A stretch of 64,000 nt of DNA from Patescibacteria group bacterium (GTDB lineage Bacteria; Patescibacteriota; Patescibacteriia; UM-FILTER-42-10): contig JBAYGW010000002.1 in assembly GCA_041666485.1 (NCBI GenBank), positions 7,711 to 71,710 of the forward strand, given 5' to 3'. The first letter of the stretch is position 1. The number at the start of each line of letters is the position of its first letter. The notes under the pieces are model-generated. The model was not told the origin of the DNA. It saw only the letters and a list, made by a program, of their open reading frames with translations, and did no database searches. Positions 23,875 to 53,357 of this stretch are shown piece by piece. The position numbers were made by a program, and so were the translations under genes.

Positions 23875-25770
23875 TTATGATTCTGTTTGATTTGCCATTT
23901 CCGCTTCAAACTCTTTTTTGGCATCTTCAATTTCCAAAAGCTGCCGCGGATCGGATGTAATCAGCTGGTCTTCGGTATATGAAGCGACGATTTTTATTGC
24001 GGCGTGTTTTGCCCCCGCAAAAAATATGCCCTCACCTAAACCCGACTCAATTAATAAATATTTTTCTCCTTCCGTCAGCATAAAGGTGTTTACCAGGAGA
24101 TCAATGCCGGCCGGCGATTGTTTCAAAAGAAGCTGTAGAGATGAGTTGGTAACAATCGCCTGTCCGTATGGCGAGCGCAGAAAGTCATTGACATCCTGTG
24201 TGATTGTGGTGACACCAAGATAATACTTACGGCAGCGTTTCACCAGCGCATAAATAAACTTCGCCGAATCCTCATTCTGCATCAGCCACCATGCTTCATC
24301 AATTACTAGCACTCTTTTTTTCACTTCGGAACGGACAATGTTCCAGATGTAGTTGATAATAGTGTAAATTCCGATCGGACGCAGTTCGTCCTCTAAATCA
24401 CGGACACTGAACACTACCAGTTGATTTTGCGTATCAATATTGGTCGGGCTGTTAAACAGTCCGGCAAAAGTACCTTTGGTATATTTTTTCAGTCTTTCCG
24501 ATAAATCCGCGCCGCCTTCCATCCCCAATAATATATCTTCAAAATCCTGCATGATAGGCGCCTCAATTTTTGTCAGATCCGATTCAGCGGATATGTCTTT
24601 TTTCGCGTAGGTTTCAATCAATGCACGGTCAACTAGTGAATCTTCAGCATGTGTCAGATCACCAAGCATCAAACGAACTAAACCTTTGAGCGTGATTACT
24701 GCGGAACGGATAATATCCGCCGGTTTATCCCTGCCAGATACAGGACGCGGCAGATCAAACGGGTTGATCTTACTTTCGGAGTTTAAAGAGATATCAATGT
24801 AAGCACCGCCCACCGCATCGCTTAAATGTTTATACTCCATTTCTGGATCAATAATAATAACTTCCGTACCAAGCATTAAGCTCCTGAGCACTTCTAATTT
24901 AACCGCGTAGCTTTTCCCGGCGCCGGAAGTGGCAAATACGACCGTATTGGCGTTTTGCAGGCTGAAACGATCAAACAGGATTAAACTGTTGTTATGCCGG
25001 TTAACTCCGTACAAGATGCCGTTATCAGATGTAAGTTCAGACGAAATGAAAGGAAAAGACGAGGCGCAGGGAGACGTGTTCATATTAAACGTGATATACA
25101 ATTCATCATTGCCGATCGGCAAAGTTGAATTAAATCCCTGCTCCGACTGAAATAAAACGCGTTTGGAATAGACAAGTTTAGAACCGAATATGGATTCAAT
25201 TCTTTCTGTGATTCGGTCTAATTCTTTTGTATCATCCGCGTAGGCAGAGATATATAAAGCATATTGAAAGAATTTTTCCGTGCCCTGAGTAATTTCATCC
25301 CGGAGCATTTCAATGTCTTTTAACGCGGTCTCTCTCAAAGGATCGCGCGGAGCGCCTTTTTCCGCATCAGAAAGAATCTGCGCTTCCAGCGCACCGACCT
25401 TGTTCTTTAACTGTTTCAAAATTGCCTCGGGTTTTACCGGATAAAAATACATGGCAATGTCCATCGGGATATTCAGATTGATCACCGGGGCAAACCAGCC
25501 GACACTGATGTACCTGGGATAAGTAACCACAAAAACAGTACTGACAAATTTGGTGCCGAGCTGGACATAGCGCGCGTCAACTTTGAAAGCTGAAGGGGCT
25601 ATTAAATCACGGACTGAAACCACACCGCGCTGAAAAGATCTTTCCGCTTCAAGAATTTCTTTCTCTTCCTGAGCAAGCGTCCTTTCGCGTTCAGCCTGTT
25701 TCAGGGAAGATGCTTCCTTCTTTGCTTCCTCTTCATCTTTGATATCCGCCTTTTTGAATAGTTGAACCAT
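23875..25770 (-). CDS. virB4: VirB4/TrbE/CagE-family T4SS ATPase.
   Basis: Walker A VVFATSGAGKSYAV and Walker B VLVIDEAWWLM, with VirB4-like overall length and motif spacing. Confidence 0.8.
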   Translation of the reverse strand: MVQLFKKADIKDEEEAKKEASSLKQAERERTLAQEEKEILEAERSFQRGVVSVRDLIAPSAFKVDARYVQLGTKFVSTVFVVTYPRYISVGWFAPVINLNIPMDIAMYFYPVKPEAILKQLKNKVGALEAQILSDAEKGAPRDPLRETALKDIEMLRDEITQGTEKFFQYALYISAYADDTKELDRITERIESIFGSKLVYSKRVLFQSEQGFNSTLPIGNDELYITFNMNTSPCASSFPFISSELTSDNGILYGVNRHNNSLILFDRFSLQNANTVVFATSGAGKSYAVKLEVLRSLMLGTEVIIIDPEMEYKHLSDAVGGAYIDISLNSESKINPFDLPRPVSGRDKPADIIRSAVITLKGLVRLMLGDLTHAEDSLVDRALIETYAKKDISAESDLTKIEAPIMQDFEDILLGMEGGADLSERLKKYTKGTFAGLFNSPTNIDTQNQLVVFSVRDLEDELRPIGIYTIINYIWNIVRSEVKKRVLVIDEAWWLMQNEDSAKFIYALVKRCRKYYLGVTTITQDVNDFLRSPYGQAIVTNSSLQLLLKQSPAGIDLLVNTFMLTEGEKYLLIESGLGEGIFFAGAKHAAIKIVASYTEDQLITSDPRQLLEIEDAKKEFEAEMANQTES

Positions 25771-25782
25771 AGTATCCTTTTT

Positions 25783-26496
25783 TTATTTTTTATCGTCTTC
25801 TTCCATTGAGCTAGAATCTTCTTCTACCTGAAGTTTATCCAAATCTACTAACTGCTCCTGGCTGAAAACTTCCGGATTATATGTATTGTAGAAAAGCTCA
25901 ATAATACTTTGAGTGTCCAGCTGTACTGATTTCAGCCCGATTGATGACAATCCGTCAGTCACATAATCTACCCTTTTGAATAATTCAGTCCGGTATTTAT
26001 CAAACTTTTTACGTTTCAAATGGATAACCGACGTCGGTGACAGTACTTCCTTCAATCTGGAAAAATATTTTTTTTGTTTATCAGAAATTGGTGAATAAGG
26101 CACAATGACATAAAATCTTTTGCTCATAATATCAGCAATCTCCACCAGTTCTTTAATGTATTGCTGATACTCAGCAGTCTGCATCCTAAGCAGTTCATTG
26201 GACTGTTCTTTCTCCACTTTCTTCAGGCGGTCCAGATATTCTTCAATATTCAATTTCCTGGATTGGATGACAATCTGGATGGAAAAATCAAATGAATTAA
26301 GGAACTGAGTATAACCCTGGATAACAGCCACCTGCTCATCTTCCGATTTCAACGCGAAATTTATTGAAGAAACTAAGATTATCGCCCTCAAGGTTCCGTC
26401 CTTCATCGCAACCACGTTATCTTTAATCTCCAAAATATCAAGATGACTCTGCGTGGAAGCTTTTGGTTTTTGTCCTGCTAACTGGTTAGAATGCAT
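25783..26496 (-). CDS. Hypothetical protein in the T4SS-like cluster (237 aa).
   Basis: Complete ORF, translationally adjacent to virB4. No motif I recognise. Confidence 0.45.
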   Translation of the reverse strand: MHSNQLAGQKPKASTQSHLDILEIKDNVVAMKDGTLRAIILVSSINFALKSEDEQVAVIQGYTQFLNSFDFSIQIVIQSRKLNIEEYLDRLKKVEKEQSNELLRMQTAEYQQYIKELVEIADIMSKRFYVIVPYSPISDKQKKYFSRLKEVLSPTSVIHLKRKKFDKYRTELFKRVDYVTDGLSSIGLKSVQLDTQSIIELFYNTYNPEVFSQEQLVDLDKLQVEEDSSSMEEDDKK

Positions 26497-26513
26497 ATTT
26501 GTTTTATTTAGAC

Positions 26514-26951
26514 TTAAAAAACGCTGTCTTCGTCTTCTTCTTTGAACGCCCCGCCGGTGTCAACTACTAAAGACAAGCGGGTTAATTTTGAGTTTGTCAC
26601 TACCATTTTGGGCGGAACAACTACCGTGGTCTTGATCGGACCTTTGTGCGCGGATGAATTCCTTTCCTGAACTGCTGTTTTATTCCAAATTTTAATTTTT
26701 GGTTTTCTGATTGTATATACGATATTCAAAATAAAATAGTGAAATGACTGGCCGTTAATTTTTGCAAAGGCAACGATGCCGGCAAACCCAAATGTGAATA
26801 GGGCAATAAATATGAACAGCACAAAACCAAAAATCTTATATTCAATGAAAATAATACCAAAAGCAACCAGGAAAATCACAAACTGCCGGACCGAAATAGG
26901 TCCGATGATTTTATCCTCCACTTCAATAAACTGCGGCACCACAAAACGCAT
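26514..26951 (-). CDS. Small two-TM membrane protein, possibly VirB3/PrgI-like (145 aa).
   Basis: Hydrophobic segments FVIFLVAFGIIFIEYKIFGFVLFIFIALFTFGFAGIVAF. Its position just upstream of virB4 matches the VirB3/PrgI arrangement in Gram-positive-type T4SS. Confidence 0.4.
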   Translation of the reverse strand: MRFVVPQFIEVEDKIIGPISVRQFVIFLVAFGIIFIEYKIFGFVLFIFIALFTFGFAGIVAFAKINGQSFHYFILNIVYTIRKPKIKIWNKTAVQERNSSAHKGPIKTTVVVPPKMVVTNSKLTRLSLVVDTGGAFKEEDEDSVF

Positions 26952-26956
26952 ATAGG

Positions 26957-28351
26957 CTAAAATCTTAATTGCTTATTTAGATCCCCTACCGCTTCAAATT
27001 CTTCATCCGTCAGATATGAACGGCCGTCTATTTTCCTGCTGGTAATCACTTCCTGCACCGACTTCCCTTTGTTCATGCCTTCGTTACCTATATCAAGATA
27101 AATCTGGTAGATTTCCGATTTTTTCCACGCCTGAATCGCTTCCGATTTCTTGGTAAATGACTCCTCCTCCAACAAATCAACCTTCTCTTTTATCTTTTCT
27201 ATTGCCTGACGGGGGTTACCTCCTAGCCTCCTGAAATCAACCAGATTTAAACTCCTTATTTCTTCAATCGGTCCCATCAATCTTGGCGGTGTTTTAATAT
27301 CTACAATCTTCGGTCGGGAATCAAATTCCGGCATCGGCCGCTGTATCTTCGGCAAAATCGGAATTCTTCTTTCTACAACAGGGGTAACCGGGATAGCCGG
27401 CTGACTGGCTTTCGTCTTTATTTCATTTTCCAGTTCATTCTTATTTTGCTGATGCAAATTGAGCACTGCTTTTTTTATTTGCTCATTGGCTACCGCTTTT
27501 CTCATCCTCTCCTGCTGCTCTTTTTCTTTCTCCGCTTCCTGCATTTTCATCCTTTGCCGCATCTCTATCTTCTTAATCTCCCCCTCATCATGAAAACTCA
27601 TTGCTTTTTCCGCTGTTATCTTCACTATCTGTTCAACAACTTCGGGAGCAAGTTCCAAGCCACCGACTTTTTTTGAACGAACCAGCAATTCTCTCAGCTG
27701 AACGGATGTCCGAATATCACGTAGACGTGATGTGATAAGACTTTCAAATCTTTTTTGCATGAGCTCATCGGAAAAACTGACTCCAACCTGACCTGCAATT
27801 TCTTTAACAACCGCACCGTAATCAATCGCTCTGGTTACTGACGATATTTCTTTGTTATGTAATCTTTTTACCTCCTCCTCATCCTCAACATCAAAATAGA
27901 AACTGGCGTTTACACCTTTACCGGGAATCATCCTACTCGCCAGTCCTGGCTTCAATTGGGAAGCTGTAATCTGCTGGACGCCCTCTTGCTTTTCAGATGC
28001 GGGTGTAACCATTTCTTTGCTTACCGGTTCTTGCTTGGGAACTGTCTGGATAACGGGTGCGGTCGGGACGGGAGTATTTGGTGTTTTCTTTACTGACAAT
28101 TGTGCAACCGCCTTCTGGATGACGGAGGGATTTATCGCAGTCGGTTTCGGTACACGAGCAACATTTACCGGAGCAACAACCGTATTTTCTTCGCCTAATA
28201 ATTTAGCGCCATTAACATAACTGAACTGACCTTTTTGGTCCTTAATCAATATTTTAGCGCCTTTTAAAATTTCTTTTTCCTCGTTATCTTTTTTGCCACT
28301 TGCGACATTTACGGATATTGAGGGGTTACTTTTGTTTTTTTGATCCTCCAT
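26957..28351 (-). CDS. Hypothetical protein (464 aa) with a Lys/Glu-rich coiled-coil region.
   Basis: Complete ORF. It overlaps the upstream gene by 26 nt, which suggests translational coupling. No motif I recognise. Confidence 0.45.
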   Translation of the reverse strand: MEDQKNKSNPSISVNVASGKKDNEEKEILKGAKILIKDQKGQFSYVNGAKLLGEENTVVAPVNVARVPKPTAINPSVIQKAVAQLSVKKTPNTPVPTAPVIQTVPKQEPVSKEMVTPASEKQEGVQQITASQLKPGLASRMIPGKGVNASFYFDVEDEEEVKRLHNKEISSVTRAIDYGAVVKEIAGQVGVSFSDELMQKRFESLITSRLRDIRTSVQLRELLVRSKKVGGLELAPEVVEQIVKITAEKAMSFHDEGEIKKIEMRQRMKMQEAEKEKEQQERMRKAVANEQIKKAVLNLHQQNKNELENEIKTKASQPAIPVTPVVERRIPILPKIQRPMPEFDSRPKIVDIKTPPRLMGPIEEIRSLNLVDFRRLGGNPRQAIEKIKEKVDLLEEESFTKKSEAIQAWKKSEIYQIYLDIGNEGMNKGKSVQEVITSRKIDGRSYLTDEEFEAVGDLNKQLRF

Positions 28352-29300
28352 TATATTTCAGTGTTGTTATTGGTCTTGACTGCGTAATGTATATTTTATT
28401 TTTTTCCAGCGCCCACTCTATGTCCTGCGGATGCCGATAATGTTTTTCAATTTTCTCGCAGATTCCGGCTAATTGGATTATTTGTTTGCCCGTGAGTTTC
28501 TGCTTCTCCTGCATTATCTTTGGAACCTTCACTTTTTTTACTCCGCTGGTTCCGGCCTGAACAATCATTTCTTTTTGCTCGGAAATATTGATATCCAGGA
28601 TTGTTTTTTCCTTTTTATCAATAATGTACGTATCCGGCGTAATCTGCCCGGAAACGATCGCCTCCCCCTGGCCGTATCCCGCTTCAATCACCATTTGATC
28701 CCGGTCGTTTGTCACCGGATGAGCCGTAAAGGCAACTCCGGATATTTCAGAATTCACCATGCTCTGCACCACTACACCCACACTGACTTTGGTTTTGTGC
28801 AGTTTCTTTTCAAAACGGTAAAAAATAGCGCGCGGAGTGAATAGTGATGACCAGCATTTACGGACTGCTTCGGCTAGATTCTTCCTGGTAATGAACAAAT
28901 ATGTCTCTAACTCGCCCGCCCATGACGCGACAGAGGAATCTTCAGCTGTTGCAGAAGAACGGACAGCAACATATTTGGTTTTCAATTTATCAAAAGCCGC
29001 CAATATCTCTTTTTGTATATCCTCCGGAATTATGAAATCGTGGATTAAGTCCCGAATTGTGTTGGAAACACGGTCCACACTGTTTATATCATTCAACTTT
29101 ACTTTCTTTAACAGTGCGTCTATCTCCACATCCAGATCTGTTTCCTCTAAAAAACGCTCAAAAGTGCCGGAAAGTACTACAAACCCGGGTGGGACCGGCA
29201 TTTTTACCATTGTCATCTCCCCCAGTTGCGCGCCCTTTCCCCCAGCTTCTGCAACACTCTTTCTATTTAATTGCGAAAAAGTTTTGGTAAATTTTGCCAT
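28326..29300 (-). CDS. Stand-alone PPDK_N-type ATP-grasp (nucleotide-binding) domain protein, homologous to the N-terminal domain of PEP synthase, pyruvate-phosphate dikinase and rifampin phosphotransferase (324 aa).
   Basis: VAEAGGKGAQLGEM...GFVVLSGTFERF, VAVRSSATAEDSSVASWAGELETYL, and DIEWALEKNKIYITQSRPITT match PPDK_N motifs throughout. It has no phosphohistidine or PEP-binding domain. Confidence 0.8.
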   Translation of the reverse strand: MAKFTKTFSQLNRKSVAEAGGKGAQLGEMTMVKMPVPPGFVVLSGTFERFLEETDLDVEIDALLKKVKLNDINSVDRVSNTIRDLIHDFIIPEDIQKEILAAFDKLKTKYVAVRSSATAEDSSVASWAGELETYLFITRKNLAEAVRKCWSSLFTPRAIFYRFEKKLHKTKVSVGVVVQSMVNSEISGVAFTAHPVTNDRDQMVIEAGYGQGEAIVSGQITPDTYIIDKKEKTILDINISEQKEMIVQAGTSGVKKVKVPKIMQEKQKLTGKQIIQLAGICEKIEKHYRHPQDIEWALEKNKIYITQSRPITTLKYNGGSKKQK

Positions 29301-29383
29301 GAAAAATCTTTTATATTATAGCATAACTGATAATAATTCACAACATTACATACAGGCACAATCGCGCTTGCTTTGGCCATTGA

Positions 29384-29411
29384 CCCCGTTAGAGCAAATG
29401 CTCTAACGGGG
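29384..29411. other. Perfect hairpin with a 13-bp stem immediately upstream of the cassette promoter.
   Basis: CCCCGTTAGAGCA-aat-GCTCTAACGGGG. No flanking T-tract. Confidence 0.5.
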
Positions 29412-29440
29412 TTGACAAATTTGTAAAAAAGGTATATAAT
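29412..29440 (+). promoter_or_regulatory. Perfect consensus sigma70 promoter (TTGACA-N17-TATAAT) driving high-GC cassette 1.
   Basis: TTGACA at 29412-29417, exactly 17 nt of spacer, then TATAAT at 29435-29440. It is followed by a ~170-nt leader containing the hairpin GAGGA-gtaa-TCCTC (29531-29544), the palindrome CCACGTG-AA-CACGTGG (29560-29575), and the SD AAGGAG (29598-29603) placed 6 nt before the ATG. Confidence 0.6.
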
Positions 29441-29609
29441 CCCCGGTTAAAAGTACGCCGTTTTGCTTGATGATGTTTCCTTAAACAAATCGGCGTGCTT
29501 TTGCACATAGTTGCCCATTCAAAAACGATTGAGGAGTAATCCTCATAACAATACCTTCACCACGTGAACACGTGGCGAAACAGGAGTCCCCCCAGCCAAG
29601 GAGTTTGTG

Positions 29610-30272
29610 ATGGTACTAGTACAAGTTTCGCAGATCCTGGCCAGGATCCCCGATGGCACCACTCGCATCTCCCTGCTCGGCCGGCATTCGCTGTCCGTGC
29701 AGGACGGGCCGAACGAGACCCGCACGCTCAGCGCAGATGGTATTCAGCTCTGCAACGAGGTGAGTGGGTTCTACACCCAGCTCGTCCATGAGTTGGAGGT
29801 GCTCACTTCCTCCTCTGAGGCCGCGTTCTACTGCTCTGACATGGCACGCTCGTTCGCGACCATCCAGGAGATTTTCCATCCGGACAGCATCTACCAGGAC
29901 GACCGGCTCAACCTGCTGGCCAGCTTGAAGAAGATCGATGGCGGCGCCTGGTTCAAGGAACAGAAGGATGCCGGGTGTTCCGAGAGGGAGATCATCTCCA
30001 ACTTCATTGTCCTGACTGATCCCAGCGTCGGCGCCGACCAGCCGTTCGAGCTGAACGCGCGGAATTACCTGCACTGGGCCGCCGAACCGAGCGGACCCCG
30101 TCTGCGGGTCGCCTTCGCGCACGAGGTGGCCTGCACCATGGCCGCCTACCCTTACTTCTTCTTCGGGGAGCAGTGGCCCGGCCTCAAGGAGTGCGAGTCG
30201 TACATGTTCTGCATGAACGACTGGGGTCACATCCTGCGCATGATCAAGGTCACCCCTCCGGCTACCCAGTAG
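29610..30272 (+). CDS. Compositionally foreign (high-GC) ORF of unknown function, 220 aa, in cassette 1.
   Basis: The ATG at 29610 is preceded by a consensus SD. Codons are strongly GC3-biased and the ORF is about 60% GC against a host background of about 38%. I see no recognisable catalytic motif. Confidence 0.6.
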   Translation: MVLVQVSQILARIPDGTTRISLLGRHSLSVQDGPNETRTLSADGIQLCNEVSGFYTQLVHELEVLTSSSEAAFYCSDMARSFATIQEIFHPDSIYQDDRLNLLASLKKIDGGAWFKEQKDAGCSEREIISNFIVLTDPSVGADQPFELNARNYLHWAAEPSGPRLRVAFAHEVACTMAAYPYFFFGEQWPGLKECESYMFCMNDWGHILRMIKVTPPATQ

Positions 30273-30289
30273 CCAACCGTACCTTCTCA

Positions 30290-30362
30290 GTCGAGCACAA
30301 ACTCGACCCACCGTTCCCGAAAGGTTCCCATTCACTCTCATGAATGTTCGGAGCCTTTTTTC
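30290..30362 (+). terminator. Terminator-like region after cassette 1.
   Basis: Hairpin GTCGAG-cacaaa-CTCGAC (30290-30307), then GGAGCC followed by TTTTTTC (30351-30362). Confidence 0.3.
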
Positions 30363-30473
30363 TTTGCCGAAAATAATATTATCGCCGGCGGGGCGCAATT
30401 ATTTCCGCAACTTTAACTTGAATTTTCACAATAAAAAGGCTACTATTAATGACTGACCATTAACCATGAATAT

Positions 30474-31376
30474 ATGAGAGAATCAACACTAGCCCCTACA
30501 ACTCTTGACGGAATTGTTGAACAAGGAAAGGAAAAAGAAAGAGAATTGCCAAAAATGACCGTATTTTTATTGCGTCATGGAGAAAGTAATAATGACAAAA
30601 CAAATCCCAACCGAGGACTTACCGAGAGAGGTATGGAGCAGGTAACAGAAAGTATCAACCAGATATTGAATAGTTTATTGTTAGAAAGCAATCCGGAATT
30701 TGAAGAATGGGATAATGAAGAATCAAGAATAACCGCCGTTCAAAATGCCATCCAAAATATAGAATTCCAGCTGAAAGATTCCGGCACCACTAGAACATTG
30801 GAACAAGTTTGGCTGGAATATGAAATACTGGAACAATACGGCGTGCCGGCAGAACACATTTATCTGCCACAAAGCGCATTTGAATACAAAGATAAAGAAC
30901 CGAATGAAAAAGCGGGCCCCGGCATAGCTAAAAGGCTCAAAGGAGTACGGGGGCTGGATCAGAATCCGGAATATAGGACTAAAATCAAATCAAAGGAGTA
31001 CCAAGAACGTGTTGGTGCAACCGGAGACATGATGGCCTGGGCCGTCTCCCCCGATGAAGATGTTCCGGATAACGTAGAAAAAAGAAGTCATATGGAAGAA
31101 CGCTACGCATCTGATATTGCAAAACTTGATAGAGTAGTCGCCCATAAAATGGAAGACTATCCGAAACGGGTGGTAGCGATTGCCAACGCCCATGCATCCA
31201 TCGCCACAATTGCCGCCGCCAAAGAATCCGGAATTCCACTGGAAAAACTTATGGGAAAAATTGGGGAAGTGCCGGAAGCCCAGGGCTTGCGCTATGATTT
31301 TTATGAAGGCGACACGGAACATACAGCTAAACCTTTTGGCCCTGAGATGGAACAGGCTGTGGCGGAATTAAAATAA
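30474..31376 (+). CDS. Histidine phosphatase superfamily protein (phosphoglycerate-mutase or SixA-like).
   Basis: MTVFLLRHGESNNDKTNPNRGLTERG contains the RHGE catalytic motif. The true start may be the internal ATG at about 30555. Confidence 0.65.
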   Translation: MRESTLAPTTLDGIVEQGKEKERELPKMTVFLLRHGESNNDKTNPNRGLTERGMEQVTESINQILNSLLLESNPEFEEWDNEESRITAVQNAIQNIEFQLKDSGTTRTLEQVWLEYEILEQYGVPAEHIYLPQSAFEYKDKEPNEKAGPGIAKRLKGVRGLDQNPEYRTKIKSKEYQERVGATGDMMAWAVSPDEDVPDNVEKRSHMEERYASDIAKLDRVVAHKMEDYPKRVVAIANAHASIATIAAAKESGIPLEKLMGKIGEVPEAQGLRYDFYEGDTEHTAKPFGPEMEQAVAELK

Positions 31377-31456: not shown

Positions 31457-32965
31457 TTATTTAATCTTCAGTATTCCGGTATTACCATCCACTTCCACAA
31501 CCTGTCCGTCTTTGAGAATTTTGGTAGTCATACGCAGACCGATTATTCCCGGGATACCTGCCTCCCGAGCCAGAGTTGCCGGGTGAGAGGTAATTCCCGG
31601 CCCTCCATCACAGATCAGTGCCGAAGCTATAGAGAGCACCTGAGTAAACACCGGCGTAGCCTGCAGAGTACATATAATATCTCCCTTTTTCACTTTATGA
31701 AATGAATCCGGATTAATTACGATCTTCACCGGCCCTTTGGTAACACCCGGTGAAACAGCCATTCCTACTAACTCTTTTACGTTCTTGTCTACTTCCACAA
31801 ATTTTTTATAATAATGCTTCGCTTTTTCCCCTGTATACAGGCTCGTTCTGCCATTTTCCATAATAAACGCACACAGCTTTATTCTTTCATTAAGGGCGTT
31901 ACTCATATTTAAACCTTTGGTAAGCATCGGTCTGACTTCTGCTGTCCTCAAATGACGCGTCTGGCGCATAGAAAGCCCGCCACGCCGGGCTATTTCCATT
32001 AAGATCGGGTCATAATAATAAAGGGTTTGTGAGACGATACTTTTTCTTAATTCTTTGTAATAGATTCCTTCGCGCATAGTTTGAAATAAGCGCTGATGTT
32101 TTTTATCAATCTTTAATTTATCTTGAATCTCATTAATTTTTGTGCCAATCCTTTCCTCTTCTTTTAGCATCTTTTCTAATGCATTTTTCGGATTCCCCTT
32201 TAGATGCTTTTTGAAACGAATAATAAAATCTTCGTATGTTAATATCGGATCATCATAATCTCTAGTGATCCAAAAGAATTTTTTTTCATGATTCTTTATC
32301 AATCTCAACAGCTCCTTATCTTTTTGAATTAAGTTAATAGTATTTATTACGTTTCCTTTAAAATAATCCGCCCATTTTTTCCGCTTATTGATAATTTTAC
32401 ATATTTTTAAAGCGGCTAAAGTTTCCTGCCTGCTTACCATTGCTTTTGTTTCAGTAATAAGAGCATCTACATAATGCGCGGCTTTTTTGGAATCTGCTTC
32501 TTTGGTGGCAATATACTCTTGCAAATATTTGAACAAATAGTTTTCTATAGCTAGAATCGGAAAATAATGGGAATACACCTGTTTATAGCGCCTCTCGTAT
32601 TCCTCGTGCAATCCCGCCAGTCTACTATTACTTAGCAATCCAAGTTTCTTTAGACTGTTATTCTCCTTTAGAAATGCATAAAAGCTCTTGGCAAAAGCCC
32701 TCTGTATTTTACCAAGTTTAATAAACATATCCGGCTGTTGGAATGCTTTTTCCAATACATTCATCCCCACCCGTTCATGATCAGCCTTATCAAAATACAA
32801 ATACATATGGTTCTCTTCAAACATTTGTACTATTCTTTTATAGGTAACCCCGACCACATCCTTCAGTTCCTTTCCTATTGATTCCATAGAAAGGTAGTTT
32901 GGGAAAGGACTCATCCGTTGCCTTTGGGATATTTGAAACCATACGATTTTTTTATTTTTGATCAT
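31457..32965 (-). CDS. PEP-utilizing-enzyme phosphohistidine (swivel) domain protein, rifampin-phosphotransferase or PEP-synthase-like but lacking an ATP-grasp domain. Paralog 1 of 6 (502 aa).
   Basis: The C-terminus GDIICTLQATPVFTQVLSIASALICDGGPGITSHPATLAREAGIPGIIGL is the PEP-utilizers mobile-domain motif with its catalytic His. The N-terminal ~400 aa is a domain I cannot assign. Confidence 0.7.
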   Translation of the reverse strand: MIKNKKIVWFQISQRQRMSPFPNYLSMESIGKELKDVVGVTYKRIVQMFEENHMYLYFDKADHERVGMNVLEKAFQQPDMFIKLGKIQRAFAKSFYAFLKENNSLKKLGLLSNSRLAGLHEEYERRYKQVYSHYFPILAIENYLFKYLQEYIATKEADSKKAAHYVDALITETKAMVSRQETLAALKICKIINKRKKWADYFKGNVINTINLIQKDKELLRLIKNHEKKFFWITRDYDDPILTYEDFIIRFKKHLKGNPKNALEKMLKEEERIGTKINEIQDKLKIDKKHQRLFQTMREGIYYKELRKSIVSQTLYYYDPILMEIARRGGLSMRQTRHLRTAEVRPMLTKGLNMSNALNERIKLCAFIMENGRTSLYTGEKAKHYYKKFVEVDKNVKELVGMAVSPGVTKGPVKIVINPDSFHKVKKGDIICTLQATPVFTQVLSIASALICDGGPGITSHPATLAREAGIPGIIGLRMTTKILKDGQVVEVDGNTGILKIK

Positions 32966-33563: not shown

Positions 33564-33703
33564 ATATTGATCAATTATTTATTTGTTTACTCACATATCT
33601 TATATAATATCATGTTTGGTATACTTTGGTTATTATGCAGTTTCTATTCTACTTGATTTTTTTGCCCAGATGTGTTACAATAAGCATATTAACCCTCTCA
33701 AAC

Positions 33704-34036
33704 ATGAATGTAGAAATAATCCGTAATGTAATACTGGCAATCGGTTGGCCAGTTTTATTTGTTTTCAGCATTTATATATTTAAAGTTGGAAAACGGGCAT
33801 ATTCCGCAGTCAATGGTTCTTTGGTCGGGAAAATTATTAAAGTACTCGTTTATTCAATGTTAGTTGAGATGTACAGCCTGGGCATCGTCAGTACAGTATA
33901 TCTTTTGAATAACGCTAATGGCATATATATTGTGCTGCCTATATTTATTGTCTGGGGGTTTGTTTTCGTCTGGAGCATCAATACGATTAAAAAATCAAGT
34001 GATTTAGCCAATAACATTACATTACAAAATAATTAA
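33704..34036 (+). CDS. Small polytopic membrane protein, tandem paralog A.
   Basis: MNVEIIRNVILAIGWPVLFVFSIYIF...LVGKIIKVLVYSMLVEMYSLGIVSTVY aligns with the next ORF. I moved the start to the internal ATG (33704) to match that paralog. Confidence 0.55.
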   Translation: MNVEIIRNVILAIGWPVLFVFSIYIFKVGKRAYSAVNGSLVGKIIKVLVYSMLVEMYSLGIVSTVYLLNNANGIYIVLPIFIVWGFVFVWSINTIKKSSDLANNITLQNN

Positions 34037-34048
34037 CTAATTAAATTT

Positions 34049-34375
34049 ATGTCGCTAGAACTTATGAGAAATACAATTTTGTTTATTGGGTGGCCGGTTT
34101 TGATTGCCGGTTCGGTCTATATTTTCATAAAAGGCCGAAATGTCTATCAATTAGTTAAGGGGTCATTGGTCGGTAAAATTACTAAGGTATTGGTTTACAC
34201 CATGTTGGTTGAAATGTATTCTCTAGGGATCGTCAGCACCGCTTATATGTTTGAAAATGCCAAAGGAGTTTACTGGGTACTGCCGGTATTTGCCGTGTGG
34301 TTCATTACCTTTGTTTGGTCTCTAAAAACACTCAAATCCGCAGGTGAAGAAGCCAAAAAAATTACCCAGGGATAA
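34049..34375 (+). CDS. Small polytopic membrane protein, tandem paralog B.
   Basis: MSLELMRNTILFIGWPVLIAGSVYIF...LVGKITKVLVYTMLVEMYSLGIVSTAY. About 60% identical to paralog A. Confidence 0.6.
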   Translation: MSLELMRNTILFIGWPVLIAGSVYIFIKGRNVYQLVKGSLVGKITKVLVYTMLVEMYSLGIVSTAYMFENAKGVYWVLPVFAVWFITFVWSLKTLKSAGEEAKKITQG

Positions 34376-34396
34376 AAAATCATTAACTATAAAACA

Positions 34397-34666
34397 ATGG
34401 CAAACGGAGAAGAATACAAAAATATAATGAGCGAGATGATTAAAAAGCAAATAGTCATCCTAGGGCCGGATATCGCGATTATGAAGGCAAAAAATGTCAC
34501 AGAACTGGCGATCAACCCAGATGGAGAGGTAACAGAGATTAACGGTGAACCGCAGGTGGCACTACAAAGATTAATTGATGAATATGTCGCCTTATCGGGT
34601 TTGATTGTCAAAAAAACCATGGAACCTTTGCTGGCAAAATATCCATCGGTTAAAGTAGATCAGTAA
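34397..34666 (+). CDS. Hypothetical small protein (89 aa).
   Basis: Complete ORF positioned between the membrane-protein paralogs and the histidine kinase. No motif I recognise. Confidence 0.4.
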   Translation: MANGEEYKNIMSEMIKKQIVILGPDIAIMKAKNVTELAINPDGEVTEINGEPQVALQRLIDEYVALSGLIVKKTMEPLLAKYPSVKVDQ

Positions 34667-34687
34667 AAGAATAAATAGATCCAGACA

Positions 34688-36436
34688 ATGGATAATTGGA
34701 ATCTTACAGTTGTTTTAATTTTTTCAGTTGCTATTACCGGGATAGTGATCAGTTTTTGCGTATATATTAGAAAATTGAAAGGAACGTTAAAAGCAGAAGG
34801 TGAAAAAAGAGAATCAGAAAATAACCGGCGCATGTATGAACTGTCCATTCTTAAAGAAATAGGAGAAAGAGCCGGTTATTCTTTAAATACCCAGAGAATT
34901 GCTGATATTATCACCGGATCATTAAAAGAACTGATTGATTACTCTACGACTTCCTATATTCTGGAAGATTCCCAAAAAAAAGAATTGCTTTTCAAGTGCG
35001 AAGTTGAAGAAAGTGTCAGCCCTAAATTTGTGGAAGATGTAAAAAGCAGGATGGTCGCGGCGCTGTCAATTTTGACAGACCAGAACTATCAGGAACGAAA
35101 GATTGAAGAAGTCGTCGCGGGGACTATTTTGGATGATGAAAACAATGAGCCTTTAAGCTCATTTTTCAATATTCCGCTGACAGTCGGCGATAAAGTCGTC
35201 GGCATTTTGAACGTATCCAGCACCAAGACCGGCCTGTACAAGGAAGATGAAATGACTATTCTGTATAAAATAACCGCGCAGGCATCCAATGCTGTTACCC
35301 GCCTGCAGGATGTACTGGATTCCGAACAGAGCAAACTCAATGCTATGGTAGTCAGCATGGCTGACGGAGTATTGATGATTGACATGGAAAACAGGGTCTA
35401 TGTGATTAATCCTAAAGTAAAAGAGCTTTTGGGGATTGAGAGTGAGGAAATTTCCATTTTTGATATTATTGAGGCATTTGAAGGCAAGGTGGATTTCAGA
35501 ACTAAGCTTGAAGAATGCGTTAAATTGAACCGCCAGGAAATTGTAGAAGAAACTTATCTTCAGCACCGTTATATTAGAATTTTGTTTTCGCCGGTAAAAG
35601 ATAAAAATGACGATACTTTGGGAGCAGTAATTATTTTACACGATATTACACACGATAAAGAACTGGAAAAAGTAAAAGAAGATTTTACCAGCATGATGGT
35701 ACATGATCTGCGATCTCCTCTGAATGGTATCCGGCTGATCGCTGAAATGTTGCAGGATAAGAAAATGCCCAAGGACCAGTTTTTGCAATCAGCTAAAATG
35801 ATTCACGAAAGCACTACGAATATTTTAGAGCTGGTAAATGATTTATTGGATGTCGCTAAATTAGAAGCCGGTAAATTCATTGTGGCCAAAGAAAAGGGCG
35901 ACCTGCAAGCGGTAATTGCCAGCAGGATTAATTTCTTTCAGGCTCTGGCGAATGAAAAAAATATAAAACTTGATTCATATTGGGAGCCCGACATTGAACA
36001 AATACCGTTTGATGAAAAAGAGATAGTTCAAGTGCTGAATAACTTACTGTCCAATGCAATCAAATTCACCGATAAAGATGGTAAGGTAACTGTGCAAACA
36101 CTACTTTTAAGAAAAGATGAGGACGTTAAAAATAAGGCCGATTCCAATAAGATAAAATGGTTTATTTCCAATACATCCCCCGCTCTGATGAAACGTAGTA
36201 GTGACCTGTTAATTTGTGCTGTAACTGATAATGGGAACGGTATTGCACAAGAAAAAATTAAGAGTTTGTTTAATAAATTTCAACAGGCGGAAAACGGTAA
36301 AAAGTCAGAAATTAAAGGAACGGGGCTGGGTTTGGTAATCGCCAAGGGGATAATTGAAGCACATGGCGGCGCGGTTGGTGTTGAGTCTGTGATTGGCAAG
36401 GGCAGCACATTTTATTTTACATTACCATTAGAATAA
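34688..36436 (+). CDS. Sensor histidine kinase (TM, GAF/PAS-like sensor, HisKA and HATPase_c domains).
   Basis: N-terminal TM segment. H-box MVHDLRSPLNGI, N-box LLSNAIKFT, and G-boxes TDNGNGIAQE and GTGLGLVIAKGIIEAHGG. Confidence 0.85.
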   Translation: MDNWNLTVVLIFSVAITGIVISFCVYIRKLKGTLKAEGEKRESENNRRMYELSILKEIGERAGYSLNTQRIADIITGSLKELIDYSTTSYILEDSQKKELLFKCEVEESVSPKFVEDVKSRMVAALSILTDQNYQERKIEEVVAGTILDDENNEPLSSFFNIPLTVGDKVVGILNVSSTKTGLYKEDEMTILYKITAQASNAVTRLQDVLDSEQSKLNAMVVSMADGVLMIDMENRVYVINPKVKELLGIESEEISIFDIIEAFEGKVDFRTKLEECVKLNRQEIVEETYLQHRYIRILFSPVKDKNDDTLGAVIILHDITHDKELEKVKEDFTSMMVHDLRSPLNGIRLIAEMLQDKKMPKDQFLQSAKMIHESTTNILELVNDLLDVAKLEAGKFIVAKEKGDLQAVIASRINFFQALANEKNIKLDSYWEPDIEQIPFDEKEIVQVLNNLLSNAIKFTDKDGKVTVQTLLLRKDEDVKNKADSNKIKWFISNTSPALMKRSSDLLICAVTDNGNGIAQEKIKSLFNKFQQAENGKKSEIKGTGLGLVIAKGIIEAHGGAVGVESVIGKGSTFYFTLPLE

Positions 36437-36451
36437 TTAAATAATACGAAC

Positions 36452-36820
36452 ATGGCAAAAAAAATATTAGTCATCGACGACGATGATGCGATACAACAAG
36501 TGATAAAATCAGCCCTCGTTTCTGAAGGCTATGAAGTAAGAATTGCCGATGACGGCAAAGAAGGTTTAAAAGTAGTAAAAGAATTCCAACCGGACTTGAT
36601 AATACTGGATATTATAATGCCGGTAATGGATGGTTTGGGATTTCTAAAAGAAAATAAAAATAGATCAATTCCTGTTATTATCCTAACCTCCCTGGGTAAG
36701 GATGATAATGAGCAGAAATTTATTGATCTGGGGGCCAGACACTTTCTACAGAAGAGCATTGTACATGTTGACGATATTAAACAAAAAATTTCTGATGTAT
36801 TAAAAGAAGAGAGTAAATAA
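36452..36820 (+). CDS. Single-domain response regulator (CheY-like receiver).
   Basis: KILVIDDDDAIQQVIKSAL...DLIILDIIMPVMDG...ILTS...K contains the receiver-domain acidic pocket and the conserved Lys. Confidence 0.85.
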   Translation: MAKKILVIDDDDAIQQVIKSALVSEGYEVRIADDGKEGLKVVKEFQPDLIILDIIMPVMDGLGFLKENKNRSIPVIILTSLGKDDNEQKFIDLGARHFLQKSIVHVDDIKQKISDVLKEESK

Positions 36821-36868
36821 TATATTAGACAAATAAAAAACCGATGGTAATTATCCCTCGGTTTTTTG

Positions 36869-38383
36869 TTAGATCTTTTTTACAATCCCCTTCGTCGCGT
36901 CCACTTCCACCAGATCGCCGTCTTTGAATACTTTGGTGGCAATTCCTGTGCCGATAATACAGGGTATTTTGAGTTCTCTGGAAACAATGGCTGCGTGGCA
37001 AGTAATGCCGCCCGTATTAGTGACAATAGCCACTGCTTTGTTCATTGCCGGCACCAATGATGGGTTGGTGGAATAGCTAATCAAAATATCTCCTTCATTG
37101 AATTTGTTTAAATCACTTGTAGAATTGATTATTTTCACCATGCCCTTGGCTTTGCCCGGATAAGCCACTTGACCACTGATAATATTATTATGCTTAATCT
37201 TAATAGTAGGTTTGGTTTGGACAAATAATTTCTTAAATTTTTTAGCTTTAGCACCAGTATAAAAACCGACTTTACCATTTACTAAAATATGAGCCGAACA
37301 TTGATACCGTTCATTTAATTGATCACTGGTAAAGGCTTTTTTATCGTTTATCAGGATATCCTGATACTCAGCCCTGGTGACATAACGGGCCTGCAGTGGA
37401 GACCAATAAAAACGACCAGCAATTTCTTGATACCATCTACCCATAGCATAATTATGGTAGTAAACCTGAACCTCTTTCCGAATTTCTTTTAAATAAGCTA
37501 ATTCCCGGACAATCTCAATTTGGTACAATTCTTCTTTATTAAAAAATAATTTTGCTTTGTTGTGAAATTTTTTAAGTTCAGCTAATTTATTTTGTTTAAT
37601 CCTTATCTCTCTATCAGGAAATATCCCCCATCGCCTTTTGACTAAATCAAAATAATATTCTGGCCCAGCGGCTGGACCTACAAAATAATACTGTAGCCAA
37701 CCAAATTTATCAGCCAGTTTTTTAAAACTACTTTGAGCGCCAGCTGATAATTCCTTAAGACTTTTACAATTTTTAAATTGTTTTAATAGAGTTTTATTTT
37801 TCTTTATCCTACTGATCAATTTTAAAACCGCCATATTTTCTTCACTGATAGCTGTCGGCTTAATAGAAGTAACTAAATTACTAAAAACAATTTCCGGGTT
37901 ACCTAATTTTTTTAGCTTGGGTTCTAGTTCTTGATATAAATTTACCGAGAATTTAACTCTGCTCATATCCAGTGTTTGTACTACTAGACCCCATTTCCAA
38001 CATTCAGCAAAAACATCATACAAATTACAATAAATCTTAAATAGCTGACTATTTGTTTTTATTTTCAAATTGTCTACCAATAAACGCCGACATAATATTT
38101 TCATCATTTTAAAAGCATCATAGTGGCCGTGACAAAGCTGTTGAAAAAATTCTTTATCTCTAATTAGCTTCTGACCAAAGTAATCCCCGGCTTTTATAAA
38201 CTGCAATTCTACGGGCCCCCAAACCACAAAATCTTTTTCAAAAACAAATAAGCTGTCCAATTTTAGCTTGTTGGCAGATAATTTTGGCAAATCTACTTTA
38301 AAATTTTTTTCATTTAAAACACACCAAGGAGTCAAAGCCACATTATAATCTTCAACTAATATGATAAACTGTCTTTTTGGCAT
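36869..38383 (-). CDS. Phosphohistidine swivel-domain (PEP-utilizers) protein, paralog 2 (504 aa).
   Basis: C-terminus GQVAYPGKAKGMVKIINSTSDLNKFNEGDILISYSTNPSLVPAMNKAVAIVTNTGGITCHAAIVSRELKIPCIIGTG. Confidence 0.75.
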   Translation of the reverse strand: MPKRQFIILVEDYNVALTPWCVLNEKNFKVDLPKLSANKLKLDSLFVFEKDFVVWGPVELQFIKAGDYFGQKLIRDKEFFQQLCHGHYDAFKMMKILCRRLLVDNLKIKTNSQLFKIYCNLYDVFAECWKWGLVVQTLDMSRVKFSVNLYQELEPKLKKLGNPEIVFSNLVTSIKPTAISEENMAVLKLISRIKKNKTLLKQFKNCKSLKELSAGAQSSFKKLADKFGWLQYYFVGPAAGPEYYFDLVKRRWGIFPDREIRIKQNKLAELKKFHNKAKLFFNKEELYQIEIVRELAYLKEIRKEVQVYYHNYAMGRWYQEIAGRFYWSPLQARYVTRAEYQDILINDKKAFTSDQLNERYQCSAHILVNGKVGFYTGAKAKKFKKLFVQTKPTIKIKHNNIISGQVAYPGKAKGMVKIINSTSDLNKFNEGDILISYSTNPSLVPAMNKAVAIVTNTGGITCHAAIVSRELKIPCIIGTGIATKVFKDGDLVEVDATKGIVKKI

Positions 38384-38401: not shown

Positions 38402-39880
38402 CTACTCATTTAACTTTTTTACAACCCCCTTTATCGCGTCTACTTCCACTATGTCGCCGTCTTTTAATACTTTGGTAGCAATTCTGGTCCCAATGACACA
38501 GGGCGTTTTTAATTCTCTGGCGACAATAGCTGCGTGGCAAGTAATGCCGCCAGAATCAGTGATTATTGCACTGGCCTTTTGCATAGCAGGTACAACCTGA
38601 GGATTTGTAGAAGTGGAAACCAGAATGTCGCCTTTGTGCATTTTCTTCATATCCGCTAGCTCATCAACTCTCCTTACAATACCTTTCGCTTTACCTGGAT
38701 AAGCGGTACTGCCTTCAATTATCTTTATGTTGGGGTTAACAAACAGTGACTGTTTTATTTCCTGAGAAATTCTTTTGACTTTTTTCCCTGACATAACCTG
38801 ATAATTAGTCCCCTTAAAAAGAACTACTGATTCCTTGATTCTTTCGTTCATCAGATCGGCACTAATATTTTCTTTGAGCAGAGCTTGTTTTATTTCGTCG
38901 GGCGTAATCATAAAGGACTGCAACCGTGATAAATTATTTCTTCTTGCAACTTCATTAATGAAACCCTCCATTAATAAATGAGCTTTCTGGTTCAAAAACT
39001 TCCGCTCAAATTTCCAGAAGCCTAGCGTTTGTAAAGCATGAATGATTCTCAGCTCTCTTTTGTTCAATTTGAGTTCCTTCTCAACCGCCCTCTGTTTTGC
39101 TGCTAGAATCTTTCCGGTCTTACCCTTTTCATTCAGCAATTTGACTATTACCTCCATTTTCCTTGGCAGTGCACTCAACCGGCGCCGGATATCATGCGTT
39201 TGCCAAGCTGGCCCGTTATAACCATAACCGATCCAAGTATATTGTTTAAGATGACTAGCAATATCTTTCTTTGACAACTTCCGCTTCAACTGTTTAAGCC
39301 GTAACTTCAATAAGGCCACTTCCTCACGCGATGCCACTGTTTCTCTAGAAGAAGAAGATAATAGTTGAAAGTATTCTCCAATTTTATCATTATCCTTTCC
39401 TAATTTTATACCAATAATTTTTTCTACTTGGTTGCTCAAAAGAGGCGCCTCCATTTCAGCCGCAGTAGCCATTACACTATAAGTCATCATGGAAATAAAT
39501 TTTTTCAACCAATCCTGCCAACGCGTTATGAGCTCTTGACCGCTCAAAGTAGATAAATCACCTGAAAGCCTTTTAGCTGCTTCAAGCATTATTGGTATTT
39601 CTTCTTTATTTACTGACTCAATCTTTTTTAGCAAAATATCATTCTGTTCTAGACGCTTTAAAATTTTTCTTCCAGGAGCAATTAAGGATCCTTCTTTTAC
39701 CAGATAGCTAAACCAATGATTTTTATACCAACAACCAATTACACCATTTTCTATGCCCACTTTTTTTGCCGCATACTGCGCACACCACCAGTACAGCATG
39801 GTAGGGTAAAGATAAGCGTTCTTATCATGGGCTAGTTCAAGCCATCTTTTTTGATGTTGATTATTCATTCTAACTAACAA
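38402..39880 (-). CDS. Phosphohistidine swivel-domain (PEP-utilizers) protein, paralog 3 (492 aa).
   Basis: C-terminus GSTAYPGKAKGIVRRV...GDILVSTSTNPQVVPAMQKASAIITDSGGITCHAAIVARELKTPCVIGT. Confidence 0.75.
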   Translation of the reverse strand: MLVRMNNQHQKRWLELAHDKNAYLYPTMLYWWCAQYAAKKVGIENGVIGCWYKNHWFSYLVKEGSLIAPGRKILKRLEQNDILLKKIESVNKEEIPIMLEAAKRLSGDLSTLSGQELITRWQDWLKKFISMMTYSVMATAAEMEAPLLSNQVEKIIGIKLGKDNDKIGEYFQLLSSSSRETVASREEVALLKLRLKQLKRKLSKKDIASHLKQYTWIGYGYNGPAWQTHDIRRRLSALPRKMEVIVKLLNEKGKTGKILAAKQRAVEKELKLNKRELRIIHALQTLGFWKFERKFLNQKAHLLMEGFINEVARRNNLSRLQSFMITPDEIKQALLKENISADLMNERIKESVVLFKGTNYQVMSGKKVKRISQEIKQSLFVNPNIKIIEGSTAYPGKAKGIVRRVDELADMKKMHKGDILVSTSTNPQVVPAMQKASAIITDSGGITCHAAIVARELKTPCVIGTRIATKVLKDGDIVEVDAIKGVVKKLNE

Positions 39881-50817: not shown

Positions 50818-50880
50818 GAGGAATCCCCGCCAGAGGCGGGTGCGCCTCGGGCGCAGAACCTTTAACTTAATACTCCAGAT

Positions 50881-50957
50881 TGGTGTGCCCGACAGGACTT
50901 GAACCTGTGGCCTTGAGATCCGGAATCTCACGCTCTATCCAACTGAGCTACGGGCAC
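50881..50957 (-). tRNA. tRNA-Arg (anticodon CCG).
   Basis: The reverse complement folds as GTGCCCG/CGGGCAC acceptor, GCTC-AGTTGGATA-GAGC, anticodon stem TGAGA/TCTCA with loop TTCCGGA, T-arm ACAGG-TTCAAGT-CCTGT, discriminator A, and CCA. Confidence 0.8.
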
Positions 50958-53328: not shown

Positions 53329-53357
53329 GTTGACAAAAGCGAGAAATAGGTGTATAA
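53329..53357 (+). promoter_or_regulatory. Perfect consensus sigma70 promoter (TTGACA-N17-TATAAT) driving high-GC cassette 2.
   Basis: TTGACA at 53329-53334, a 17-nt spacer, then TATAAT at 53352-53357. Confidence 0.6.

Follow-up and report, generated by a model that had tools for sequence, protein, structure and literature searches.

Whether a short, GC-rich gene standing in a genome of lower GC content should be regarded as a foreign insert, or as a native gene whose composition is actively maintained, is the question raised by a segment from a Patescibacteria group bacterium (contig JBAYGW010000002.1 of assembly GCA_041666485.1). The segment, here termed cassette 1, occupies positions 29384-30366 of the 64,000-nucleotide stretch that was analysed (the window), and consists of a single open reading frame (ORF) of 220 amino acids (aa) with its own predicted promoter, leader, Shine-Dalgarno sequence and terminator (Table 1). 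A previous sequence-only reading had suspected it to be a horizontally acquired or otherwise foreign expression module, inserted among dikinase-like genes and encoding a protein with no recognisable motif. The present analysis indicates instead that cassette 1 appears to belong natively to a phosphotransfer gene cluster of Patescibacteria, in which it is conserved, and that its product stands for a new branch, hitherto unannotated, of an enzyme superfamily already known, with an unusual and conserved signature of composition and expression. The reading that we favour, and hold to be probably correct, is that of a native histidine phosphatase of a split dikinase network, probably expressed very strongly, whose GC richness is maintained and is not the scar of a transfer.

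All of the parts listed in the sequence-only reading were located between 29384 and 30366 by a direct sequence check. The described contrast between a segment of about 60% GC and a genome of about 38% GC holds for the coding sequence (CDS; GC 0.611, with 0.57, 0.42 and 0.84 at the three codon positions, GC1 to GC3) and extends in part to the 3' untranslated region (UTR; 0.51); it fails for the AT-rich promoter and most of the leader (GC 0.40-0.42), and the overall GC content of the window is 41.7%. The GC3 of the other 45 long ORFs in the window is 0.384 +/- 0.043, which places the cassette 1 ORF at z = +10.8 and that of a second GC-rich unit, cassette 2, at z = +7.8. The codon-usage comparison that had been asked for showed that these two genes have the lowest adaptation to the codons of the bulk genes in the window, with cassette 1 the lowest of all. 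The 260-aa ORF on the opposite strand, previously taken for an antisense artefact, was likewise rejected as a gene: it is codon-aligned with the sense frame, remains open only because the sense codons TTA, CTA and TCA are nearly missing (counts of 0, 1 and 0), and terminates at the single CTA.

Sharp GC boundaries and a long antisense ORF are also what might be expected of an artefact, in which a chimeric assembly or contaminant, or else a structured RNA or an antisense gene, had been mistaken for a sense ORF; that explanation is hardly credible. An independent Logan contig (SRR6484324, 1307 bp) is 100% identical to window positions 29299-30605 and thus crosses both GC junctions, and related genomes, assembled independently in JGI, ENA and NCBI, show this architecture again, so that a chimera, or the misassembly at the GC boundaries that had been considered earlier, is unlikely. 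The encoded protein is identical to WCT33_00710 of a Patescibacteria metagenome-assembled genome (MAG). The sense ORF is favoured by its pattern of GC1, GC2 and GC3, by a ratio of nonsynonymous to synonymous divergence (dN/dS) below 1 and by a confidently predicted fold, and the antisense frame is accounted for by the missing codons. Searches of Rfam assigned no family to the leader, returned only tRNAs at the gathering score across the whole window, and at a permissive threshold produced only chance-level matches (E at least 0.29) between 29300 and 30450.

The position of the gene bears directly on its origin. In the window, the gene order is PPDK_N (an ATP-grasp domain; minus strand), the cassette 1 gene (plus), a 300-aa histidine-phosphatase-like protein with a canonical RHGE motif (plus), a PEP-utilizers protein (minus) and a HAD gene (minus). 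Among related loci (designated by L-numbers, of which L001, L002 and L009 belong to MAG WC693 and L016 to GCA_027341205.1), the same order is found in L001/L002/L009, with two copies of the cassette 1 gene; in L004; and in L016, where the homolog is 33% identical and one extra gene lies between it and PPDK_N. In L018 the same slot holds two tandem copies, 43% and 38% identical, with no RHGE gene; these paralogs (P0017 and P0016, within L018 3394-5011 of a 33% GC genome) each possess a TTGACA promoter and a terminator. Homologs therefore occupy the PPDK_N slot in four other lineages (L001, L004, L016 and L018), with a histidine-phosphatase-like gene next in the first three and PEP-utilizers genes following in all that extend far enough. 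A partial form, in which the gene lies beside PEP-utilizers and/or a histidine-phosphatase-like gene, is found in L005 and L010, and altogether the family adjoins PPDK_N and/or PEP-utilizers genes in six other Patescibacteria lineages, as do most of the eight members that were traced to contigs. The sole homolog found outside this context lies in a different setting, in a 54% GC genome.

Divergence at the locus is in keeping with this distribution. Across the window, L001 and L004, the synonymous divergence (dS) of the cassette 1 gene is 0.6-1.2, as compared to 0.6-2.6 in the flanking genes, and its dN/dS is 0.35-0.43, as compared to 0.04-0.10. With dS no higher than in the flanks, and the gene faster at the protein level, these comparisons indicate vertical descent at the locus and confirm that the sense frame is coding. 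No integrase or transposase was found among the neighbouring genes of the window, the only hallmarks of mobility upstream of the cassette were small palindromes and a 5-bp TTGAC duplication, and among members with examined contigs no homolog from outside Patescibacteria-type contexts was found that might represent a donor lineage. The cassette resembles the compositional islands attributed to horizontal transfer in its strong deviation of GC, GC3 and codon usage and in its sharp boundaries; it differs from them in that it occupies a syntenic slot across distant relatives and is not absent from that site, has no mobility genes, carries a promoter and leader of native-like composition, and shares its deviation with the whole family in each genome. 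It therefore serves as a caution against taking compositional islands for evidence of horizontal transfer. Several kinds of mobile or diversifying element were also considered and rejected: an integron-type gene cassette (the gene has its own promoter and terminator, no integrase and no attC, and the window does not share the palindromes that flank the L004 copy), a mobile cassette or defence system (no integrase, attC or PADLOC match), and a diversity-generating retroelement target (the examined genes included neither a reverse transcriptase nor a template repeat, and the bias lies at GC3 and is not a depletion of adenine).

The compositional excess is itself a trait of the whole gene family, and not of one acquisition. 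In all 11 copies examined the gene is GC-richer than its surroundings, by +0.04 to +0.21: 0.61 against 0.42 in the window; 0.59 and 0.60 against 0.40 for the two L001 copies; 0.57 against 0.37 in L004; 0.52 against 0.40 in L005; 0.48 against 0.35 in L013; 0.45 and 0.44 against 0.33 for the two L018 copies, each of which lies about 12 points above its genome; 0.60 against 0.50 in L016; 0.40 against 0.36 in L010; and 0.62 against 0.54 in L019. A one-off recent transfer is insufficient as an explanation, since the positive offset is consistent in genomes of 33 to 54% GC. The family offers the case of a GC-richer gene (the excess reaching about 20 percentage points in GC and 46 in GC3) that resides in a conserved slot and diverges in step with its neighbours.

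An older event, in which the gene was acquired from, or replaced by a xenolog from, a GC-rich donor such as an epibiont's host, came under a native promoter and has since ameliorated slowly, is unlikely. It would account for a GC3 of 0.84 accompanied by raised GC1 and GC2 and by a GC-rich 3' UTR, for a codon usage typical of bacteria of 60-65% GC, and for the restriction of the most extreme GC to one sub-clade (the window, L001 and L004); the known hosts of Patescibacteria are GC-rich (preprint 10.64898/2026.06.21.733656). Polarised synonymous singletons in that clade also run from GC to AT in 20 cases and from AT to GC in 6, with the two directions nearly even in the window lineage and an apparent loss of GC in L001 and L004, so that the gene may have an old GC-rich ancestry. 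Set against such an origin, the PPDK_N slot is kept in four other lineages, with homologs down to 33-43% identity and GC elevated in each copy examined; dS is no higher than in the flanks; and none of the eight traced members comes from a recognisably GC-rich source outside Patescibacteria. In addition, the unrelated cassette 2 has the same GC signature and the same promoter type, which points to a cause connected with the mode of expression.

Folding of the messages provided a further line of evidence for GC richness that is maintained. When compared to shuffles of their synonymous codons, coding sequences of the cassette 1 family fold with a mean z of -2.2 (n=10), as opposed to -0.4 for the 11 genes of the window that served as controls (p = 7e-4, one-sided Mann-Whitney test), and three members of the cassette 2 family gave values of -3.6, -5.2 and -1.9. 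These results are suggestive of selection on mRNA structure.

The product of the gene, for which the sequence-only reading had recognised no motif, bears the pattern RHS...R...S.MxR..T...HE of the histidine-phosphatase superfamily, and an AlphaFold2 model built from an alignment of five homologs (predicted local distance difference test, pLDDT, 87.5; predicted TM-score, pTM, 0.86) displays an alpha/beta fold with a central mixed beta-sheet, as in PGAM-like phosphatases; PGAM5, CobC, TIGAR and phytases are listed with this model. The N-terminal motif of the RHG type, with its nucleophilic histidine, corresponds to R25-H26-S27 ('GRHSLS'), which is invariant in the 12 closest sequences, with R25 at least 90% conserved in 42 sequences, and which, in a weak profile match to PDB sequences (E about 0.1), aligns to the RH motif of SixA and to 'liRHS' in PGAM5. 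The family alignment also shows R38, and S76-x3-R80-x3-T84 and H171-E172, which vary little or not at all, fall at the positions expected from the alignment. The Arg-His...Arg...His catalytic set thus appears intact, and the protein is predicted to be a divergent member of the superfamily (branch 1) with a PGAM/SixA-like fold and phosphatase activity; a few distant members (P0049, which reads 'IRRS', P0065 and P0070) are without the motif histidine.

No Pfam, NCBIfam, PHROG or PADLOC family was matched at E <= 0.1-1, and a phmmer search of PDB was also empty. Since the curated models are silent, and the PDB profile match reaches only E about 0.1, the protein is best described as a new family within the superfamily that lies outside the existing Pfam model. 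A profile search of 1.84 billion representatives returned 80 matches at E <= 0.001, of which 62 were at E <= 1e-10; the family comprises about 80 clusters at 50% identity, with members mostly of 200-230 aa that, where they bear a name, are recorded as 'hypothetical protein' of Patescibacteria or Komeilibacteria. A word-indexed profile search added just two further distant members, and a locus search with a narrow alignment in GTDB genomes and JGI metagenomes found only genomes that were already known. A previously unrecognised family, hypothetical wherever it was named, is in this manner assigned to the histidine-phosphatase superfamily. Paralogy with the neighbouring 300-aa RHGE protein was considered and rejected, as only the region of the RH motif aligns (hhalign probability 49%).

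SixA and PGAM5 are phospho-histidine phosphatases. The cassette 1 protein shares with SixA an N-terminal Arg-His nucleophile motif, a later arginine, a C-terminal histidine and the form of a small, single-domain cytoplasmic protein, and its locus is rich in phospho-histidine proteins (PEP-utilizers swivel domains and a histidine kinase); it differs in being about 60 residues longer, with extra helices, in reading RHS instead of RHG, and in an identity of only 13-14% with no Pfam or NCBIfam match, and the SixA substrates (the HPt domain of ArcB, and NPr) are not evident at this locus. As regards PGAM5 and the PGAM-like small-molecule phosphatases (RosC, PhoE/YhfR, CobC and the phosphoserine phosphatase PspA), the weak profile matches to PDB sequences align on the 'liRHS' that PGAM5 also has; the sequence identity is 10-17%, and the cap and insert regions that define the substrate pockets cannot be aligned. 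We know of no RosC, PhoE/YhfR, CobC, PspA or PGAM5 that is linked to a split dikinase cluster.

Such a cluster is precisely the surroundings of cassette 1. Between 28326 and 50931, one PPDK_N gene and six paralogs of about 500 aa, each with a C-terminal PEP-utilizers swivel domain, together form an array of split dikinases. Also present in the window are a histidine kinase with its response regulator, a HAD hydrolase, an APH-like kinase and five genes of phosphoribosyltransferase type. Known two-component dikinases for small molecules (HpeHI, CreHI and PpsAB), which are RPH-like and operate through a phospho-histidine intermediate, likewise combine an ATP-grasp PPDK_N subunit with separate substrate/swivel-histidine subunits (PMC12167813); here, in contrast, as many as six swivel subunits go with a single ATP-grasp gene, and two histidine-phosphatase-like genes, the HAD gene and phosphoribosyltransferases are added to them. 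The location of most contig-traced family members beside split dikinase genes furnishes a testable hypothesis for a multi-paralog phosphotransfer cluster in organisms of minimal metabolism. Phenylphosphate synthase possesses an unrelated third subunit, and to our knowledge no dedicated phosphatase partner has been described for the known two-component dikinases.

The non-coding parts of the cassette have their own pattern of conservation. The promoter is a 12/12 match to TTGACA-N17-TATAAT, as previously described, and exactly two such perfect matches exist in the 64 kb, ahead of the only two GC-rich genes; with at most one mismatch, six are observed where 0.77 are expected. A TTGACA(AA)-N17 element with a -10-like hexamer precedes every homolog checked (both copies of L001, L004, L013, L016 and both copies of L018) except L010, which has no clear -35 box, and the -10 box of L005 is weak; a strong Shine-Dalgarno sequence and a strong terminator are present also in the distant homologs with checked flanks. 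The consensus match argues for an active promoter in the window. The AAGGAG element ahead of the start codon, the GC3-biased ORF and the terminal hairpin with its T-tract were all found as described, as was the leader with its GAGGA/TCCTC hairpin and palindrome (P2 and P3 in Table 1). Of the leader hairpins, L004 and L013 keep both P1 and P2, the pairing being preserved by compensatory and wobble changes, and P1 carries a conserved motif, ACGCNGTTTTGCTNGA, that is restricted to the leaders of these genes. The palindrome CCACGTG..CACGTGG, which had been likened to an operator, is better viewed as an RNA hairpin, because G-U wobbles keep the variants in L001 paired as RNA, and L004 has lost the element.

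Comparison with L001 delimits the unit. The promoter, the 3' part of the leader (91%) and the terminator are 91-93% identical between the window and L001, as compared to 77-78% for the CDS, and the terminator is about 92% identical in both L001 and L004. In the second L001 copy homology begins exactly at the -35 box (window 29412), and in the first it stops exactly at the terminator (window 30366); a duplicated unit that runs from the -35 box to the terminator supports the view that the segment is a self-contained and probably monocistronic expression module, and to this extent, and in its atypical composition, the description of an expression module was borne out.

The perfect hairpin described at 29384-29411 proved to be a 28-nt perfect inverted repeat that abuts the -35 box and could fold, as RNA or DNA, into 12 bp with a 4-nt loop, or into 16 bp if its flanks are included. 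It lies outside the conserved part of the module: it is present in L001 copy a and missing from copy b, which reads 'cagccaTTGACaaat' (L001 5366-5396 and 9775-9790), and a role as a conserved upstream operator was rejected, as it is missing in that copy and in other homologs. TTGAC stands on either side of it (29380-29384 and 29412-29416), and, because it is in copy a and not in copy b, it resembles a miniature palindromic element, the insertion of which (32 bp) would have regenerated the -35 box through a 5-bp target duplication. The loop of the palindrome is AAAT in the window but ATTT in copy a of L001.

The same pattern of conserved margins and a divergent interior could arise at a recombination hot spot, at which the promoter/leader and terminator serve as 'arms' for exchange or conversion of the cassette, its GC content is raised by GC-biased gene conversion and the protein diversifies. 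Non-coding flanks that are 91-92% identical around a CDS at 77%, a dN/dS 4-8 times as high as in the neighbours, the presence in L001 and L018 of tandem or duplicated copies, nearly identical 3' ends of the two L001 copies, a GC-rich 3' UTR and frequent assembly breaks at the cassette edges would all be accommodated. The leader, however, which would be expected inside the converted tracts, is AT-rich, and GC-biased gene conversion in bacteria is usually weak, far below the +0.46 in GC3 seen here, so that we consider this origin improbable. Family members in L003, L011, L012, L013 and L004 lie on contigs of 1-2.4 kb that hold little else. The edges of the cassette thus seem to be points at which assemblies break, and GC-dependent coverage, strain variation or repeated flanks could be responsible.

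Under the reading of a native, strongly expressed phosphatase, the consensus sigma70-type promoter would drive very strong transcription of an mRNA that opens with a stable 5' stem-loop, the consensus Shine-Dalgarno sequence would provide for efficient initiation, and the 5' hairpin, the GC-rich structure of the coding sequence and the 3' hairpins would stabilise the message, a layout expected to yield very high and long-lived expression. The GC richness would then most plausibly be upheld at the level of the mRNA, through the structure or stability of a very highly expressed message. The 220-aa enzyme would most likely remove phosphate within the dikinase phosphotransfer network, either from a phospho-histidine carried by the swivel subunits or by the histidine kinase nearby, in the manner of SixA or PGAM5, or from phosphorylated small-molecule products of the dikinases, in the manner of PhoE or RosC. 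The leader is reminiscent of the mRNA-stabilising 5' stem-loops of Escherichia coli ompA and Bacillus subtilis aprE/ermC, in that a hairpin begins 1-2 nt from the predicted 5' end and a strong Shine-Dalgarno sequence lies downstream; it differs in that the likeness is drawn from sequence, and in that P1 carries the conserved motif ACGCNGTTTTGCTNGA, which hints at a specific binding partner more than at a generic stabiliser.

Several observations weigh against this reading. The putative strength of the promoter and stability of the mRNA are read from consensus matches and predicted folding; Pfam His_Phos_1 (PF00300) does not pick up the protein, and the candidate proton donor, E87, is not invariant. 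The preponderance of GC-to-AT changes described above means that the GC3 of the sub-clade may be eroding, as would be seen in slow amelioration and not in tight maintenance. The mRNA-structure signal is moderate, the homologs that contribute to it being related to one another and all of the controls coming from one genome.

Cassette 2 offers an independent comparison. The layout of promoter, leader and terminator is common to both cassettes, as the sequence-only reading had indicated; they share the perfect promoter, including an extended TTGACAAA and a GTTAAAA start region, and in both a leader that is long and structured, a CDS rich in GC and a strong terminator follow, and a self-similarity comparison of the two cassettes with each other and with the rest of the window found no common repeat beyond the promoter hexamers. 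Their proteins are unrelated, and the genes lie 23 kb apart, each in a conserved slot of its own, that of the cassette 2 gene being located between phosphoribosyltransferases and the APH-like kinase in three genomes; the two cassettes were seen together in just two genomes, which are closely syntenic, and the earlier suggestion that they are halves of one system is therefore a conjecture. Each may plausibly encode a high-flux enzyme in the salvage of phosphate and nucleotides. The combination of a consensus promoter, a 5' stem-loop, a GC-rich structured CDS and a strong terminator on two unrelated genes suggests a distinct 'high-expression design', which is topical given claims that the codon usage of Patescibacteria is tuned against that of GC-rich hosts.

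Patescibacteria have been described as importing host RNA and as having a codon usage complementary to that of their GC-rich hosts (preprint 10.64898/2026.06.21.733656), and it might be proposed on this basis that the coding is oriented towards the host, with the gene or message used in a GC-rich host cell, or with translation reliant on a host-derived supply of tRNA or RNA. The genes of cassettes 1 and 2 would be exceptions with host-like codons, and type IV secretion-like genes lie 3-6 kb upstream. This proposal is very improbable: the 220-aa protein has no signal peptide or secretion signal, its promoter and Shine-Dalgarno sequence are bacterial and conserved with the parasite genome, and the GC excess is small in some members (+0.04 in L010). 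A broader conjecture, to which we would likewise give little credence, is that the host-like codon usage and excess mRNA structure of the two genes represent an adaptive and conserved device of RNA-scavenging Patescibacteria, which would provide either nuclease-resistant messages for highly expressed enzymes of phosphate and nucleotide salvage, or translation gated by host supply. The first version would mean that these messages survive in a cytoplasm specialised in degrading imported RNA; the second, that a host-derived supply of codons or tRNAs gates translation, so that expression reports contact with the host. In either case a gene-specific 'codon dialect' would be upheld against the AT pressure of the genome.

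Table 1. Features of the two cassettes and of neighbouring genes (window coordinates; dG, predicted folding free energy in kcal/mol)
Feature	Position	Strand	Description
Perfect palindrome	29384-29411	.	28-nt perfect inverted repeat abutting -35 box; dG -26.6, z -8.7
Predicted sigma70-type promoter	29412-29440	+	TTGACA 29412-29417, N17, TATAAT 29435-29440
5' leader	29447-29609	+	About 163 nt, three predicted hairpins; dG -49.4, z -4.5
Leader hairpin P1	29448-29503	+	z -6.0 alone; begins 1-2 nt from predicted 5' end
Leader hairpin P2	29530-29545	+	GAGGA/TCCTC hairpin
Leader hairpin P3	29556-29579	+	Contains CCACGTGaaCACGTGG
Shine-Dalgarno sequence	29598-29603	+	AAGGAG, 6 nt ahead of ATG 29610
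Cassette 1 CDS	29610-30272	+	220 aa; predicted divergent histidine-phosphatase-superfamily protein
Antisense ORF	29616-30398	-	260 aa; non-gene, codon-aligned with sense frame
3' UTR	30273-30366	+	GC 0.51; small hairpin 30290-30307; intrinsic terminator
Intrinsic terminator	30319-30359, T-tract to 30366	+	z -4.7
PPDK_N (ATP-grasp)	28326-29300	-	Pfam E 9e-101; upstream neighbour, divergent; also in L001, L004, L016, L018
300-aa histidine-phosphatase-like protein	30474-31376	+	Canonical RHGE motif; downstream neighbour; also in L001, L004, L016, L005 (opposite strand)
PEP-utilizers protein	31457-32965	-	Swivel phospho-His domain; first of six in window
Other PEP-utilizers paralogs	36869-38383, 38402-39880, 39870-41348, 41403-43028, 49219-50931		Remaining five of six
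Cassette 2	53330-54338	+	Perfect promoter 53330-53358, leader, CDS, hydrophobic ORF, terminator
Cassette 2 CDS	53523-54125	+	200-aa LOG-fold protein, GC3 0.72; PGGxGTxxE-like 'GREGTMAHL' motif
Hydrophobic ORF	54132-54263	+	43 aa, conserved; after LOG-fold CDS
Type IV secretion-like genes	within 23875-26951		TraG/VirB4-like ATPase; TraC-like protein (by L001/L002 ortholog; window copy has no Pfam match); PrgI

Several further features of the window were recorded. A local rise in GC (0.51) at 56869-57300 corresponds to a Pro/Gly/Ala/Ser-rich, low-complexity C-terminal tail of a 1180-aa membrane protein, and has a cause other than that of the two cassettes. The type IV secretion-like genes at 23875-26951 lie directly upstream of the dikinase cluster and are syntenic in L001. 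Downstream of the HAD gene, a module at 33653-36881 comprises small membrane proteins, a GAF-PAS histidine kinase and a response regulator; the same module lies between the two phosphatase cassette copies in L001 (6394-9620), in a rearrangement that is bounded by those copies. Finally, a GC-rich palindrome, GCAGGCGCGAATTC(N)AATTCGCGCCTGC, is found on both sides of the L004 cassette (at about 789-816 and about 1797-1826), is split by an inner palindromic insert in L001 copy a (5281-5350) and is represented by a degenerate remnant at window 29362-29380; it may belong to a family of intergenic elements resembling repetitive extragenic palindromes or miniature inverted-repeat transposable elements (REP/MITE-like).

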